A stretch of 32,000 nt of DNA. Origin: Candidatus Methylomirabilis limnetica (GTDB lineage: Bacteria > Methylomirabilota > Methylomirabilia > Methylomirabilales > Methylomirabilaceae). The notes below the pieces were generated by a model. That model made no database searches. It saw nothing but the letters and a program-made list of their open reading frames with translations, and was not told where the DNA came from. Location of the stretch: assembly GCF_003044035.1 (NCBI RefSeq), contig NZ_NVQC01000022.1, positions 30,001 to 62,000 of the forward strand. Direction: 5' to 3'. The position numbers were made by a program, and so were the translations under genes. Shown here piece after piece: positions 4,839 to 32,000 of the stretch (positions are counted from its first letter, which is position 1; the number at the start of each line of letters is the position of its first letter).

Positions 4839-6050
4839 TCAACCCTTCGCGCCCTCCCGGTTGCGCTTGCTCGCCATGAGGTCCACGAAGCGCTGAAAGA
4901 GGTAGCTGGCGTCATGGGGACCAGGGGAGGCTTCCGGGTGGTATTGCACCGAAAAGATCGGGAGGCGACGATGTCGCATCCCCTCGACGGTTTGGTCGTT
5001 GAGATTGATGTGGGTCAGCTCGATCTCTTTATCCGGGATCGAGGCGATGTCCAAGGCAAAGCCGTGATTCTGGGTGGTGATCTCCACCTTCCCGGTCGTC
5101 AGATCCTTGACAGGCTGGTTCCCGCCGTGATGACCGAACTTCAGTTTGTAGGTCCGTCCCCCGAGGGCGAGACCCAGGATCTGATGGCCCAAGCAGATGC
5201 CGAAGATCGGCGCGGCGCCAATCAGCTTTTGCACGTTGTCAATCAGATACGGCACGCCCTCCGGGTCGCCGGGGCCATTACTCACGAAGACCCCATCCGG
5301 GGCCAAACCCATGACCGTGGACGCAGGAGTATCCGGAGGAACCACCGTCACGTCGCACCCTGCCTCTACCAACCTCCGCAGGATATTCAACTTGATCCCG
5401 CAGTCGTAGGCCACCACACGGAAGGGTTTATGGGTTAGGGTAGAGGGGTTAGGGAACAGCGCGAGCTGATCTGCCAACTCGAAACTCGAAACTCGAAACT
5501 CGAAACTGCCTTCGTACCCCTTTCCCAATTGCCACGGTCCCTCGCGCCACGTGTAGGGCGAGGTACAGGCCACCTCTTTCACCAAATCGCGACCGATCAG
5601 GCCAGGCGAGGCCTTGGCCTTGGCAATCAGGCTATCTGGGTTCAGGTCTCTTGTTGAGATCACCCCTTCCATCGCCCCATGGTCCCTCAGATGCCTGGTG
5701 AGCGCCCTGGTATCGATCCCCTGAATTCCCACGACGCCCTGCTCTTTAAGGTAGCTGTCAAGGGTCCGAGTGCTGCGCCAATTGCTTGGGTAGGGGCTCG
5801 CCTCCTTCACAATGAACCCCTCCACGGCCGGCACTGTTGACTCGACGTCCTCAGGGTTGATGCCGTAGTTGCCGATCAGAGGATAGGTCATCACGACCAT
5901 CTGGCCCTTGTACGAGGGGTCGGTCAGGACCTCCTGGTATCCGGTCATGCTGGTGTTGAAGACCACCTCACCGACGGTCTCCCCTTCTGCGCCGAAGGAG
6001 ACACCCTCGAAGATGGCGCCATCGGCCAGCGTCAATAACGCCTGCTTCAT
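4839..6050 (-). CDS. carA: Carbamoyl-phosphate synthase small (glutaminase) subunit, with a repeat-derived linker insert
   Basis: 403-aa ORF. N-terminus [47 protein letters not shown]. Class-I GATase motifs are present: [10 protein letters not shown] (catalytic Cys) and [13 protein letters not shown]. Confidence 0.97.
5424..5510. repeat. Heptamer-tandem-repeat element inside the carA CDS
   Basis: On the plus strand: GGGTTTA TGGGTTAG GGTAGAG GGGTTAG GGAACAG, a 16-nt spacer, then (AACTCGA)x4 at 5476-5503 plus partial AACTGCC. On the coding strand this is (GTTTCGA)n ... CCCTAAC-type heptamers, translated as [24 protein letters not shown]. Confidence 0.85.
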
Positions 6051-7502: not shown

Positions 7503-8432
7503 TTATCCCGCCTGCCCGCCGCCAGCAATGAGGTAGAGCAAGGCCATCCGCACGGCCAGGCCATTTTCCACCTGATTGAGGATCAGCGAATAGGGCCCAT
7601 CGGCGACGTCTGGCGCAATCTCCACGCCCCGATTGATCGGGCCGGGGTGCATGATCAGCACATTAGGCTTTGCAGCCTTCAGCCGTTCTACGGTGAGACC
7701 GAACAGGCGAGAGTACTCTCGCAGCGAGGGAAACAGCCCGGCCTGTTGGCGCTCGACCTGAAGTCTCAGCATCATGATGACGTCGACCTCGGCGATGGCT
7801 CGATCGAGGTTCGTAAAGACCTCAACGCCGAGTCGCTCGACGAAACGGGGAAGCATCGTCCGGGGCCCTGCAACCCGCACCTCCATCCCCATCTTCTGCA
7901 TCCCATGAATGTTGCTCCTGGCGACCCGGCTATGAGTGATGTCGCCGATAATGGCTGCCTTGAGTCCCTCCAGTCGCCCCACCTTCTCCCTGATGGTGAA
8001 GAGGTCGAGCAGGGCCTGGCTGGGATGCTCGTGAGCGCCATCGCCGGCGTTGATGATCGGCGCCGCAAGTCGCTTGGCCAGGAATTCTGCCGCTCCAGCG
8101 GATGGATGGCGGATAACCACGACGTCCGGGTGCATTGCTTGCAGCGTCAGGCCGGTATCCTTCAGACTCTCCCCCTTGGCCACCGAACTGGACGAGATGG
8201 AGATATTGACGACGTCGGCGCTCAGCCACTTGCCTGCGATCTCAAAGGATGTCCGGGTCCGCGTGCTGGGCTCGTAGAAGAGATTGATCAGGGTCTTGCC
8301 GCGCAGGGCCGGCACCTTCTTGATGTCGCGGCGGGCCACCTCCTTCATCGACTCGGCAGTATCCAAGATCAGCCGGATCTCGTCTACCGTCAGCTCCCGC
8401 ATGCTCAACAGATCTTTTCCTGCCAGGCCCAT
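7503..8432 (-). CDS. pyrB: Aspartate carbamoyltransferase catalytic subunit
   Basis: 309-aa ORF with [11 protein letters not shown] (carbamoyl-phosphate binding STRTR), [11 protein letters not shown] and MHPGPINRG motifs. Confidence 0.97.
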
Positions 8433-15746: not shown

Positions 15747-16600
15747 GTGAAGAATTGCCAGCCGATTCCCAGGGCAAGATGATCGTATTCGGGGCGAAGC
15801 AGATTCGCCGTATTTGGCACGATGACCAGTGGTTCTTCTCCGTTGTGGACATCATCGGCGCCCTCACCGACAGCGAGAATCCACGCGATTACTGGTATCG
15901 CATGAAGCAGCGGGAGAAGGAATCTAGCGGAATCGAGTTGTCGACACTTTGTCGACAACTGAAACTAGTCTCATCTGACGGCAAGGCTTACCCCACGGAA
16001 GCCGCGTCCACCGAAGCCGCCTTTCGCATCATCCAGTCGATCCCCAGCCCCAAGGCCGAACCGTTCAAACGCTGGCTGGCTGAGGTGGGTTACCAGCGCG
16101 TCCAGGAGATCGAAAACCCCGAACTTGCCCAGCAGCGGATGCGGAAACTCTATCAGGACAAAGGCTACCCCGACGATTGGGTCGAAAAGCGCGTCCGTGG
16201 CATTGCCGTCCGTGACGAACTGACCAGCGAATGGCAGAAACGCGGTATTCAGGATCAAAAAGACTTCGCCATACTTACCGGCGAAATTTCCAAAGCCACA
16301 TTTGGCTTGACTCCTGCCGACTACAAGAAGCTGAAGGGCCTGAAGCGTGAAAATCTCCGCGATCACATGACCGACCTCGAGTTGATCTTCACCATGCTCG
16401 GCGAGGCCGCAACCACAGAAATCGCGCGCAACAAAAACGCCCAGGGCCTCCTAAAAAACAAACTGGCTGCCAAAGCAGGCGGCTCGGTTGCGGGCAATGC
16501 CCGTCGCCAGCTTGAAGCCAAGTCGGGCCGCAAGGTCATCACCCGCGACAATTACCTGATCGACAAACCCAAGCGCAAGCTTCCACCGAAGTCGGAGTAA
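15743..16600 (+). CDS. Bro-N domain / DinD-like (DNA-damage-inducible protein D family) protein
   Basis: The N-terminus FGAKQIRRIWHDDQWFFSVVDIIGALTDSENPRDYW is Bro-N-like. The C-terminal half (RDELTSEWQKRG...DFAILT...KGLKRENLRDHMTDLELIF...) resembles E. coli DinD as I recall it. GTG 15743 is preceded by AAAGGAG and overlaps the stop of the displaced Res frame (GTGA). ATG 15779 is the alternative start. Confidence 0.75.
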   Translation: MSEELPADSQGKMIVFGAKQIRRIWHDDQWFFSVVDIIGALTDSENPRDYWYRMKQREKESSGIELSTLCRQLKLVSSDGKAYPTEAASTEAAFRIIQSIPSPKAEPFKRWLAEVGYQRVQEIENPELAQQRMRKLYQDKGYPDDWVEKRVRGIAVRDELTSEWQKRGIQDQKDFAILTGEISKATFGLTPADYKKLKGLKRENLRDHMTDLELIFTMLGEAATTEIARNKNAQGLLKNKLAAKAGGSVAGNARRQLEAKSGRKVITRDNYLIDKPKRKLPPKSE

Positions 16601-20424: not shown

Positions 20425-20466
20425 GTAACTACTAAGGTGGATAGACCGAAGGCTGAAGGCTGTTAG
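20425..20466. repeat. Solo terminal inverted-repeat copy of the CTGAAGG-heptamer MITE
   Basis: GTAACTACTAAGGTGGATAGACCGAAGGCTGAAGGCTGTTAG aligns with the left TIR of the element at 23216-23376 (GTAACTGCTCAGGTAGATAGACTGAAGGCTGAAGGCTTTTAG). Confidence 0.7.
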
Positions 20467-23207: not shown

Positions 23208-23215
23208 GTCGAATG

Positions 23216-23376
23216 GTAACTGCTCAGGTAGATAGACTGAAGGCTGAAGGCTTTTAGGGGTAAGCCGCGTGATTATTTAAAACCCCGAGAAGGTCTTGAG
23301 GGGCTCGGTTCGTACCCTCTGATATAATTTAGAGCCTTCAGCCTTCAGTCTTCAGCCTAAACACCTGAGTAGTTAC
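23216..23376. mobile_element. 161-bp MITE-like element with about 40-bp TIRs that contain inverted heptamer tandem repeats
   Basis: Left end: GTAACTGCTCAGGTAGATAGA(CTGAAGG)x2CT. Right end: AG(CCTTCAG)x2 TCTTCAG CCTAAACACCTGAGTAGTTAC. CGAATG is present on both flanks (23210-23215 and 23379-23384). It is non-coding and lies between iaaA and the AI-2E gene. Confidence 0.8.
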
Positions 23377-23403
23377 GCCGAATGAACGAAGAGGGTGGAG
23401 AGA

Positions 23404-24667: not shown

Positions 24668-25069
24668 TTAATAGCCGCCCCTGCGACCGCCGCCACCGCC
24701 GCCGCCACCGCCGCCGCTACCGCCGCCGCCGCGATATCCGCCACCGCCGCCGCTGCTGCTACCACCACCACTGCGATATCCGCCACCACCGCCACCACCG
24801 CCACCACTTCGGCGAGGAGCCTGTTCTTTTGCCTCATTGACCGTCAGCGCCCGACCACCAACATCTCGCCCATTCAAGGCCTGGATAGCGGCCTCAGCGT
24901 CGCTCGGACTCTCCATCTCAACGAAGGCAAAGCCCCGGGGTCGTCCAGTATCACGATCTGTAATGATCTTGACATCGGTGACCTTACGATCACCCTCTTC
25001 AAAGAGGGTGCGGAGCGCAGATGCATCCGTATCAAACGGGAGATTACCAACATACACTCGTGTTCCCAT
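24668..25069 (-). CDS. RRM-type RNA-binding protein with glycine/arginine-rich C-terminal tail
   Basis: RNP-2 VYVGNL and RNP-1 RGFAFVEM are present. The tail reads RRSGGGGGGGGGYRSGGGSSSGGGGGYRGGGGSGGGGGGGGGGRRGGY. ATG 25069 is preceded by GGAAGGAG. The track ORF start 25165 adds an unsupported N-terminal extension. Confidence 0.92.
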   Translation of the reverse strand: MGTRVYVGNLPFDTDASALRTLFEEGDRKVTDVKIITDRDTGRPRGFAFVEMESPSDAEAAIQALNGRDVGGRALTVNEAKEQAPRRSGGGGGGGGGYRSGGGSSSGGGGGYRGGGGSGGGGGGGGGGRRGGY

Positions 25070-25188
25070 GCTTTCGAAACTCCTTCCGTCGGCCTGCGGC
25101 CGACTTCTCACGGGTAGTTCGATTAGCGCCATCGCCATGGCCCCGCATTCCATGGCTGGCTTCATCCGCCCGGACCTCCCCGGGGGAC

Positions 25189-29592: not shown

Positions 29593-32000
29593 GTGCATAG
29601 CTTTCGGCAAGTGATAGTGGATGAGATTCTCCCTGCAGTGAGTAAGCCGTCCCGGTACATCGGGATGGAATGGAACGCCATCAAGAAGGACCCCGCCAAC
29701 GCTAAAGTCAAAGTCGCGTTAGCCTTTCCCGATACGTACGAAATCGGCATGTCCCATCTGGGCCTGAAGATCCTGTACCAGATCCTGAACCGGCGGCCGG
29801 AGTTTATGGCGGAGCGGGCCTATGCGCCGTGGGTGGATGCGGAGCGGCTGCTGCGGCAGCAGAGGGTTCCACTCTGCACCATTGAATCCGGCTACAGCCT
29901 GGCGGATTTCGACCTGATTGGCTTCACGCTGCAGTACGAACTCTCCTACACGACGCTCCTGAACATGCTGGACCTGGCCGGTATCCCGCTCCAGAGCGAG
30001 CAGCGCCGCGAAGGGGATCCATTCGTGATCGCGGGTGGTCCTGTCGCCTTCAACCCGGAGCCGATCGCCGACTTTATCGACCTATTCCTGCTCGGCGATG
30101 CGGAGGAAGCGATTATAGAGATCTGCGAAGCGGTCATGCAGTGGAAAGCAACGGGGGGGCCGCGTGAAGAGCTCCTCGAGGCATGGGCCAAGATCGAAGG
30201 CTGCTACGTGCCCGCGCTCCACCAGGGCGAGACGATTCGCAAGCGGACAGCGATCCACCTCGATGGGATCGACTATGGCGCGTTTCTGGTCCCATTCATG
30301 GAGATCGTTCACGACCGCGTCAGTATCGAGGTGATGCGTGGATGTACGCAGGGGTGCCGCTTCTGTCAAGCCGGCTACATCTACCGACCGCTTCGAGAGC
30401 GATCCGCCGAGGAGATCATGCAGATGACCCTGCAGGCAAGACGAGGGACGGGGTATGAAGAGGTCTCGCTAGGCTCGTTGAGCATCGCCGATCTGACCGA
30501 TCTCCCTCATCTTATCCACCCGCTCATGGAGGATCTCTTGCCGGAGAAGATCTCGCTGTCCCTCCCCTCCCTGCGGGTTGAAGCCCTGAACCGTTTTCCG
30601 CAGGTGGCCGAGGAGATCGGACGGGTTCGAAAGACCGGCTTCACCATCGCGCCGGAGGCCGGAAGCCAGCGGCTTAGAAAGGTGATCAATAAGGAGGGGT
30701 TCGACGAGGAACAGATCTTCATGGCCGTGAGGAATGCCGCCAAATCCGGCTGGGAGTCGGTGAAATTCTACTTTATGATTGGGCTCCCGACCGAGACGCA
30801 GACGGACCTGGACGAGATGATTCGCATCACGCGGGAATCGGCGCGGATCGCGCGGGCGGAGTCGGCTCGAGGCTTTGGGCTGACAGTCAGTACCTCCTCG
30901 TTCGTCCCGAAGCCCCACACCCCATTCCAGTGGTACGCACAGGAGCCGATGGATATCCTCAAGGAAAAGCAGGATTTCCTGAAGCGAAAGTTACGAGAGG
31001 CGAAAGTGTCGTACAAGTGGCATCATGTCCAGTCCTCCTTCCTGGAGGCGGTCTTCTCCCTGGGTGACCGCTCACTTGGTCGAGCCATCCTTCGTGGCTA
31101 TGAACTCGGGTGTCGGCTTGACGGCTGGACTGAACATCTGAGGTTCGACCTATGGATGCAGGCCTTCGACGAGACAGGGATCGATCCGAAGGCGATCGCT
31201 AATCGGCCGCGCAATCTGGATGAACCGCTACCGTGGGATCATATCGACATCGGCGTCAACAAGTCGTTCCTACAGCGAGAGTACAAGAAGGCGTTAGAGG
31301 TCCGCGGGACGGCCGATTGTCACACGGCTCCATGCACGGCCTGTGGCGAGATCTGCCAGCCCAACTGGCCAACCTGGGCGGAGAAGGTCGGAATGAAAGT
31401 TTCGGGTCCAGAGTTTCGAGTTTCGAGTTCGACGTGCGTTGTTCCTGGCGCTGAACCCGAAATTCAAAACTCAAAACTCAAAACTTTATATGAAGCGCCC
31501 GTTCAGCGCATCCGGTTTATTTTTCAGAAGATCGGGGTGCTGCGGTATCTTTCGCACCTGGAGTTAATGAAGGCGTTGGGCCGGGCGGTGCGTCGGGCTC
31601 GGATAGCCGTAGCCTACTCCCAGGGGTATAACCCCCAACCAAAACTCGCGTGTGCCATGGCGCTTCCAGTGGGGGTCGAGGGGTGGCAGGAATTGGCGGA
31701 CATCGAGTTGAGCGCGGCCATAGCCCCAGAGGAGTTGGTGGCACGAGTCAATCGGTCCCTGGCACCGGAGCTACACCTGCTCCGAGCCTGGGAGGTTCCA
31801 TTGGCGTCGCCCTCGCTTACACCGTTGGTGCGGGAGCTCAACTATCGAGTCTCATTGCCGTTGGATAGCTCCTCCCAGGAGATCCGAGTGAAGCTCAGCT
31901 CCCAGGCGCTCTGCAATGAGTGGCTCGATCGGCCAAGCATCCCGGTCCGCGTCAGGCGAAAGGATAGGCTCGTGGATGTCGATGTCCGGCCGCAGATCCT
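29593..32000 (+). CDS. B12-binding-domain radical SAM protein (TIGR03960-like) fused to a DUF2344/TIGR03936-like domain; 3' end beyond the window
   Basis: This ORF is not in the supplied ORF track. I translated frame 1 by hand and found it open from the TGA at 29590 to the window end. GTG 29593 has AAGGAG 8 nt upstream. The sequence reads ...LPAVSKPSRYIGMEWNAIKKD..., with radical-SAM cluster motif RGCTQGCRFCQAG, then ...PKPHTPFQW... The DUF2344-like part is RIRFIFQKIGVLRYLSHLELMKALGRAVRRARIAVAYSQGYNPQPK. Confidence 0.85.
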   Translation, partial: MHSFRQVIVDEILPAVSKPSRYIGMEWNAIKKDPANAKVKVALAFPDTYEIGMSHLGLKILYQILNRRPEFMAERAYAPWVDAERLLRQQRVPLCTIESGYSLADFDLIGFTLQYELSYTTLLNMLDLAGIPLQSEQRREGDPFVIAGGPVAFNPEPIADFIDLFLLGDAEEAIIEICEAVMQWKATGGPREELLEAWAKIEGCYVPALHQGETIRKRTAIHLDGIDYGAFLVPFMEIVHDRVSIEVMRGCTQGCRFCQAGYIYRPLRERSAEEIMQMTLQARRGTGYEEVSLGSLSIADLTDLPHLIHPLMEDLLPEKISLSLPSLRVEALNRFPQVAEEIGRVRKTGFTIAPEAGSQRLRKVINKEGFDEEQIFMAVRNAAKSGWESVKFYFMIGLPTETQTDLDEMIRITRESARIARAESARGFGLTVSTSSFVPKPHTPFQWYAQEPMDILKEKQDFLKRKLREAKVSYKWHHVQSSFLEAVFSLGDRSLGRAILRGYELGCRLDGWTEHLRFDLWMQAFDETGIDPKAIANRPRNLDEPLPWDHIDIGVNKSFLQREYKKALEVRGTADCHTAPCTACGEICQPNWPTWAEKVGMKVSGPEFRVSSSTCVVPGAEPEIQNSKLKTLYEAPVQRIRFIFQKIGVLRYLSHLELMKALGRAVRRARIAVAYSQGYNPQPKLACAMALPVGVEGWQELADIELSAAIAPEELVARVNRSLAPELHLLRAWEVPLASPSLTPLVRELNYRVSLPLDSSSQEIRVKLSSQALCNEWLDRPSIPVRVRRKDRLVDVDVRPQI
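31396..31487. repeat. Heptamer-tandem-repeat hairpin element inside the radical-SAM CDS (domain linker)
   Basis: (GAGTTTC)x2 GAGTTCG at 31411-31431, a 32-nt spacer, then (TCAAAAC)x3 at 31464-31484. The reverse complement of the second array is GTTTTGA-type, so the two arrays form imperfect inverted repeats. It is translated as SGPEFRVSSSTCVVPGAEPEIQNSKLKTL. Confidence 0.8.

Follow-up and report, generated by a model that had tools for sequence, protein, structure and literature searches.

A translated heptamer-array hairpin in the interdomain linker of a radical-SAM/DUF2344 gene of Candidatus Methylomirabilis limnetica

Introduction

How does a hairpin built from seven-nucleotide units come to be read in frame within a protein-coding gene, and did it play any part in joining the two domains between which it lies? 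The question is raised by a 92-nt element at positions 31396-31487 (+ strand) of a 32,000-nt stretch of DNA from Candidatus Methylomirabilis limnetica (contig NZ_NVQC01000022.1, positions 30,001 to 62,000; hereafter, the window). The element lies within a gene for a fused radical-SAM/DUF2344 protein, and a preliminary description of the locus had proposed that it may mark, or may even have mediated, the joining of two once separate genes. The comparisons presented here argue against such a role. As a whole, the observations are best explained by a resident, tolerated copy of a heptamer-array repeat class, lodged in a disordered linker, and we consider this explanation probable.

The hairpin element and its host gene

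The host gene extends from position 29593 to position 32000 of the + strand, where it is still open at the end of the window. It was identified as a fused radical-SAM (TIGR03960)/DUF2344 (TIGR03936) gene from its open reading frame (ORF), its homologues, and NCBIfam and Pfam domain matches. In the closest full-length homologue (P0001; 867 aa, 99% identical), TIGR03960 was matched by residues 10-586 with 693.5 bits (cut-off 462.3), and TIGR03936 by residues 639-840 with 154.8 bits (cut-off 71.9). The hairpin element corresponds to residues ~602-632, entirely between the two matches, and the in-frame position exactly at the interdomain junction, as first described, was thereby borne out by the ORF and by the domain limits. 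An AlphaFold2 model, built on a 32-sequence alignment (mean predicted local distance difference test score, pLDDT, 68), gave residues 575-633 a pLDDT below 50 and no secondary structure, and the element is predicted to sit in a disordered tether between the two domains.

The element consists of a 5′ arm (31396-31430), a 22-nt loop (31431-31452), and a 3′ arm (31453-31487), all on the + strand. The arms are 35 nt each, 77% complementary, and 22 nt apart, and complementarity rises to 89% in the core (31412-31429 and 31468-31485). Tandem Repeats Finder detected an array of period 7 in each arm: GAGTTTC in 2.7 copies at 31411-31429 (100% match), and AAACTCA in 3.7 copies at 31460-31485 (94% match). 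Written out, the arrays read GAGTTTC GAGTTTC GAGTTCG at 31411-31431 and three times TCAAAAC at 31464-31484. Both the hairpin with heptamer-array arms and the coordinates and sequences of the arrays agree with the preliminary description. The loop codes for a semi-conserved, Cys-bearing stretch (..STCVVPG..), as seen from the inverted repeat and the comparison of homologues. Most orthologues within the genus retain this Cys (..STCVVP.., ..SKCQVP.., ..PRCVDP..), while other residues of the linker change freely.

Folding of the element was computed for both RNA and DNA, as had been proposed. The + strand RNA folds with -35.2 kcal/mol (z = -3.9; equally stable shuffles, 0/200), and the DNA fold is weaker (-15.4 kcal/mol, z = -1.8). 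The RNA of the - strand folds better than that of the + strand (-40.3 kcal/mol, z = -4.9), because C.A mismatches on the + strand become G.U pairs on the - strand. No stop codon occurs in any frame of either array on the coding strand, so that the hairpin is simply translated, as ~30 low-complexity residues. It is read in frame as MKVSGPEFRVSSSTCVVPGAEPEIQNSKLKTLYEAP (wider reading, ...AEKVGMKVSGPEFRVSSSTCVVPGAEPEIQNSKLKTLYEAPVQRIRF...); an example of a linker-spanning peptide of the window protein is VSSSTCVVPGAEPEIQNSK.

A search of the window with GAGTTTCGAGTTTC, allowing up to 2 mismatches, returned 8 matches against 0.2 expected. Among them was an array at 5476-5507 in carA, confirming the early observation that the two genes share a unit of the GAGTTTC type. 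The element is bordered by GGAATGAAAG at its left and ATGAAG at its right. Read from the sequence, the left copy of a short flanking direct repeat, ATGAAAG, lies at 31393-31399 (+ strand) and the right copy, ATGAAG, at 31490-31495, and an RTGA(A)AG ... RYGAAG pair also flanks the element in orthologues. This repeat, short and imperfect as it is, suggests a possible old target-site duplication. No Rfam family reached its gathering threshold (best score, 21.8 bits against 83 for a miRNA precursor model, E = 0.26), and no promoter-like or terminator-like pattern, including a GC-rich stem followed by a T-run, was found within 30800-32000.

Register, units, and pairing in orthologous linkers

The linker was compared among ten orthologous loci (L001-L010; 75-92% protein identity), including those of M. 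oxyfera (L001) and M. lanthanidiphila (L005). Linker DNA was extracted from each locus, and its length was measured from PTWAE.. to ..QRIRF. Heptamer arrays were present in all ten loci, between ..VGM and (S)EAPVQRIRF. The linker is 150 nt long in the window and in L001, L002, L003, and L010, and these five were compared without gaps; in the other loci it ranges from 120 to 264 nt. In four of the five 150-nt linkers, the four units of the 3′ arm occupy the same columns. They read CCCGAAA TTCAAAA CTCAAAA CTCAAAA in the window, CCCGAAA in all four positions in L002, CTCAACA in all four in L001, and CCCGACA CCCGATA TCCGACA TCCGACA in L003. The fifth, L010, has four CTCCCAA units shifted by about two units. 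Units of the CCCCCAA type were found in L009, and of the CGCACCC type in L006.

Arrays that are uniform within a species and differ between species, at a fixed register and length, indicate that they descend from a common ancestor and evolve in concert; such a pattern is not what independent point mutations would give. The element has been resident at the linker since before the Methylomirabilis species diverged. Selection for a repeat at the protein level was considered and rejected, in that the DNA register is constant while the peptide differs wholly from one species to the next. Out-of-frame repeat variants, of the kind expected of a phase-variable contingency locus, were not seen, all full-length homologues of this small sample being in frame.

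The arrays also extend beyond the genus. A self-match lag of 7 aa, equal to three heptamers, was the commonest lag in the linker of 37 of 116 protein homologues. It reaches homologues at 60% identity, with repeats of the AESREPx type, indicating that heptamer arrays have occupied the linker in a large part of the phylum. In more distant homologues, linkers are either unrelated or heptamer-derived.

The units of the 5′ arm vary as well: AGTTTCG in the window, L002, L004, and L005; AGTGTCA or AGTGTCG in L001 and L007; and GTGCGAG in L006. They stand opposite 3′ units that match them, giving the pairs AGTTTCG/CGAAAC-, AGTGTCA/CAACAC-, and GTGCGAG/CGCAC-type. In a matrix of duplex energies of every 5′ arm with every 3′ arm, which is partly confounded by arm length, the own-species pair was best in both row and column for L001, L004, and L006. 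The hairpin is significant on the + strand in the window, L002, L004, and L005 (z from -2.6 to -5.1).

Joint change of the two arms in two or more lineages, arrays that persist across the genus at constant length, significant folds in four of the linkers, and the conserved synteny of an RNase E/G gene, found directly downstream in every one of the ten orthologous loci, would all be in keeping with a selected RNA or DNA structure, such as a ribosome pause, a processing or stability site, or the binding site of a protein with 7-nt periodicity. This explanation is nevertheless improbable. In L003, L007, L009, and L010, the fold falls short of significance, the hairpin having been lost or having decayed while the gene stays intact; in L007, the 3′ arm is mostly deleted. 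Wherever the hairpin is significant, the sense mRNA is less stable than the antisense RNA, transitions on the sense strand having produced A.C rather than G.U oppositions. The lack of an Rfam match and of terminator or promoter patterns also speaks against a selected structure, as does the presence of like elements in unrelated genes and spacers (see below). The hairpin structure is dispensable, because it has been lost or has decayed in several lineages, and constraint on it is weak. A more elaborate form of the idea, by which the paired arrays would be actively kept complementary and homogeneous, through hairpin-templated correction or selection, and would act on the mRNA between the domains, e.g., as a ribosome pause or in processing tied to RNase E/G, the class being co-opted repeatedly in linkers (carA, a histidine kinase), seems to us a long shot.

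A further sign of weak constraint is seen at L008 2535-2600, where a different in-frame palindrome, CCCCCCCACCCCCCC-TTTTTTAAA-GGGGGGCACGGGGGG (C7AC7-T6A3-G6CACG6), replaces the 5′ arm and is read as KPPHPPFFKGGHGG.

The element and the fusion of the two domains

The proposal that the element mediated the fusion of two separate genes, or is a scar of it, drew on the separate occurrence of the two domains in many genomes and on the location of the element exactly at their junction. The DUF2344 part was searched against 1.84 billion representative proteins, and the best 150 matches were classed by length as stand-alone DUF2344 (300 aa or less) or fused (780 aa or more). Stand-alone proteins are indeed the majority elsewhere, accounting for 117 of these 150 matches, with 17 in the fused class. 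The remainder of the proposal did not hold. Methylomirabilota homologues, close and distant, are all fused, both domains being present in all 120 best homologues (57-99% identity) except three shortened sequences. The first of these, P0042 (L132), is shortened since its contig, VEOU01000124.1, stops ~35 nt before the linker; the second, P0038, is labelled 'partial' by its source. The third, P0099 (L131), is the sole confirmed split. It was considered as a natural split at the repeat and rejected, for a C5 run has lost 1 nt there, and the assembly contains many further frameshifts, with neighbouring genes fragmented too, which points to an artefact of the sequencing type. As a separate matter, the linker repeat may break short-read assemblies, as at the end of contig VEOU01000124.1.

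Orthologues with an equally long, conserved, non-repetitive linker had been named beforehand as an observation that would speak against a part in the fusion. Linkers close to this description were found in fused proteins (~25-60 aa, without repeats), which are similar in length to the linker studied here; the proteins that carry them are only 33-53% identical in DUF2344, so that the comparison is one with distant relatives. These linkers indicate that the fusion is widespread and independent of heptamer arrays. A split pair of ORFs with an intergenic heptamer element, as had been envisaged for relatives, was looked for and not found in any relative compared. Nor is an internal translation start conserved: the ATG at 31393 is ATA (Ile) in L004, and Ile in many orthologues. 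We infer that the hairpin element neither caused nor marks the fusion; the proposal is largely refuted, and we give it next to no credence.

Heptamer arrays within and beyond Methylomirabilis

Arrays of period 7 were counted in 202.6 kb of Methylomirabilis DNA, comprising the window and the ten orthologous loci. Eight perfect arrays of at least 3 units were found for period 7, and none for periods 5, 6, 8, 10, and 11 or in shuffled sequences; at a looser threshold, 49 arrays were found for period 7 and none for period 8.

Several arrays are, like the linker element, translated. The related copy in carA (5476-5507, - strand) is an array of GAGTTTC in 4.6 copies in the interdomain linker, is in frame, and reads FEFRVSSFE. 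A second, heptamer-like array lies at 5424-5454 (- strand), of the CCCTAAC type on the coding strand and not complementary to the first. Both carA arrays (5424-5507) flank a conserved QLxLF peptide, on either side of which every Methylomirabilis carA protein shows rapidly changing peptides of heptamer type. Compared with typical CarA, the carA linker is extended and fast-evolving in the whole phylum. In M. lanthanidiphila, an in-frame hairpin of the GAGTTTC/GAAACTC type lies within the HATPase domain of a histidine kinase, in one of its loops (L005 7256-7324), and is read as VSSSEFGVSSVEPETGNSKLKT (VSSSEFGVSS..NSKLKT); the same loop in M. oxyfera (L001 ~8075-8125) contains arrays of another unit (CCCTATA/CCCACTA-like). 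Further in-frame copies were located at the C-terminus of obg (L006 9558-9650) and in L003, whose radical-SAM/DUF2344 gene has another at its C-terminal end (7660-7726). Intergenic hairpins of like build occur at 23216-23376 of the window, at L005 14656-14738, and at L006 7523-7594 and 8214-8288.

Outside the genus, the 18-mer AGTTTCGAGTTTCGAGTT was profiled across bacterial genome contigs and matched at least 120 loci, compared with ~17 expected by chance (an estimate). The phyla among the matches listed include Acidobacteriota, Planctomycetota, Desulfobacterota, Bacteroidota, Chloroflexota, Cyanobacteria, and Gammaproteobacteria. Among the matches listed (L011-L130), a complementary array of the C/A type within 200 nt follows in 20 of the 108 usable loci and precedes in 2. 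This order, with the G/T-rich array first, is a topological bias of paired arrays that is unexplained. The notion of GAGTTTC as a special, horizontally spread element was tried and rejected, as viral contigs gave 18 matches for GAGTTTC and 7, 95, and 6 for control heptamers of the same composition. These control frequencies agree with the commonness of 7-nt units in the literature: according to surveys as they are cited in PMC4679880 and PMC4692102, the long simple repeats of bacteria most often have units of this length, which is put down, possibly, to polymerase slippage.

The general abundance of arrays speaks for a purely local explanation, in which the linker arrays would have arisen in place as a microsatellite by slippage, and the inversion by template switching, with no mobile ancestor. 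Heptamer arrays of arbitrary unit are common, as the viral controls illustrate; the GAGTTTC array is carried by bacterial genomes of many phyla (at least 120); the cited surveys favour slippage; the 7-aa lag recurs in homologues some of which are only 60% identical; and the GAGTTTC-type copies share neither termini nor loop. We nonetheless hold this explanation to be rather unlikely. A few unit families recur at unrelated loci within one genome, two other heptamer hairpins are cleanly present in some species and absent from others (one has terminal inverted repeats and is flanked by a target duplication; see the following section), and the left boundary of the linker element, given above, resembles the GAATG-type flanks of proven mobile copies.

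A mobile family with heptamer arrays in the same window

One of these two hairpins is a proven 161-bp miniature inverted-repeat transposable element (MITE) at 23216-23376 (no strand assigned), which was recognized from its repeats and from empty sites. It is intergenic, adjoining an asparaginase gene on one side and an AI-2E transporter gene on the other. Arrays of (CTGAAGG)n lie just inside terminal inverted repeats (GTAACTRCTCAGGTR.WTAGRC) that are 22 nt long and non-repetitive. An 8-bp target duplication flanks the element (GTCGAATG at 23208-23215, GCCGAATG at 23377-23384), and L002 and L010 have empty spacers at the orthologous position, with a single GCCGAATG each. Terminal inverted repeats, target duplication, and empty sites together make up a full MITE signature. 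A further copy of the family occurs in L002, and a solo terminal repeat, with two GAAGGCT units, lies at 20425-20462 (+ strand) of the window, where its neighbours are an ABC-2 transporter gene and a TPR gene. The MITE copies are flanked by GAATG-like sequence. No published description of such MITEs was found for Methylomirabilis.

The second hairpin with a presence/absence pattern is intergenic and lies upstream of an alcohol-dehydrogenase gene. It is present in L005, L001, L002, and L008 (spacers at L005 14518-14756, L001 15197-15524, L002 17624-17978, and L008 6086-6445) and absent in L009 (spacer at 15761-15897), L131, and L010. Its units, AGCTGTC/GCTGATA and variants, differ by species, and further palindromic elements are nested in its loop. 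The heptamer-array class thus includes mobile members.

The linker element resembles the MITE at 23216-23376 in the heptamer arrays of its arms, in its hairpin build, and in GAATG in the flanks (at the left edge, for the linker element). Its arms reach the ends of the element, as do the terminal inverted repeats by which MITEs are recognized. It differs from the MITE in that 22-nt non-repetitive ends, a clear target duplication, and empty sites could not be demonstrated, and in its unit, GAGTTTC rather than CTGAAGG.

A repeat of another kind was noted at 24674-24807 of the window. It is rich in CCG/CCA, has periods of 3, 9, 12, and 42, and lies inside an ORF (24668-25165, - strand) with an RRM_1 domain; presumably, it encodes the Gly-rich tail of an RNA-binding protein.

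Origin and maintenance of the linker copy

Most probably, the hairpin element is a selfish or neutral repeat that is tolerated. It is one copy of a class of small repeats, widespread in Methylomirabilis DNA, whose arms consist of 7-base units and are often paired as a palindrome, and it lies in the linker tether, the one part of the gene in which almost any sequence is tolerated. Replication slippage and gene conversion may then homogenize the units of each arm and keep the arms complementary for a time, while selection on the reading frame would admit only net length changes of 0 or of multiples of 3 nt. The element would have no adaptive role other than that of a spacer. As to how it arrived, we favour the insertion of a MITE-like element long ago, by analogy with the mobile members of the class; this origin is not proven.

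Several points weigh against the explanation by a resident repeat of mobile origin. The insertion of the linker copy is inferred by analogy only, as no empty site (which would read ..GGAATGAAG.. or ..GGAATGAAGCGCC..) was found within the genus, all ten orthologous loci being filled. The GAGTTTC-type copies have only their heptamers in common; their loops, termini, and flanks differ, and they are not alignable over their full length. Shared heptamers alone are as compatible with an origin from simple sequence as with a mobile origin. Selection for pairing, rather than neutral correction, could lie behind the compensatory changes of the arms. Length polymorphism of the kind left by slippage (±7 or 21 nt) was not seen in a scan for metagenome alleles with degenerate flanks and a gap of 60-90 nt, which returned two alleles only, both identical to L002. 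Finally, the census is limited to ~200 kb.

The attractive fusion hypothesis fails, and the remaining value of the locus is that of a natural series for the dynamics of heptamer repeats, in which a repeat with a period not divisible by three persists in coding sequence through a whole genus. What is unusual in the linker copy is its long residence in frame, with a turnover of units that preserves the register. The linker, carA, and histidine-kinase loci form a convenient system in which to ask why 7-nt repeats are common in bacteria and how they homogenize. On the practical side, heptamer repeats may inflate the apparent variability of linkers in alignments, in addition to breaking assemblies. 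The Methylomirabilis genomes, moreover, carry a MITE family for which no earlier description was found.

Comparison with known repeat systems

No description of heptamer repeats in Methylomirabilis or NC10 was found in the literature. Those described from other bacteria include the short tandemly repeated repetitive (STRR) sequences of cyanobacteria, GGGAATC of Xanthomonas, GGGGA(T/C)T of Nostoc, and TAACTGA of Beggiatoaceae (PMC4692102, PMC4679880). The Methylomirabilis arrays resemble them in consisting of tandem 7-nt units, typically in 2-5 copies, and in the excess of period 7, which here was seen in the 202.6 kb. In both, the number and sequence of units vary at one site between relatives, and some inverted pairs form stem-loops (PMC4692102, PMC4679880). 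The known heptanucleotide repeats are reported to be mainly intergenic and under-represented in coding regions, a customary trait of such repeats and not a strict mark of them, whereas those described here are translated in frame as part of at least four proteins; in addition, register and length are fixed across species at the linker, and the arms change to match.

Repetitive extragenic palindromic (REP) sequences and bacterial interspersed mosaic elements (BIME) are likewise short, dispersed, imperfect palindromes present in many copies, but REP sequences are extragenic, lack tandem heptamers, and are linked to REP-associated tyrosine transposases (RAYT); no RAYT gene was seen here, although no search aimed at one was made. 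Closer in its setting is the Rickettsia palindromic element (RPE), a small palindrome that is translated as an extra peptide in normal enzymes, at sites compatible with the fold (PMC10969869). The likeness is one of build, and a relationship in sequence is not expected: RPEs form families of ~150 bp with a conserved peptide, whereas the element studied here has heptamer arms, a variable peptide, and no core in common with other copies. The linker copy is a further case of the bacterial heptanucleotide repeats and of in-frame palindromic MITEs, in a phylum for which neither had been described before.

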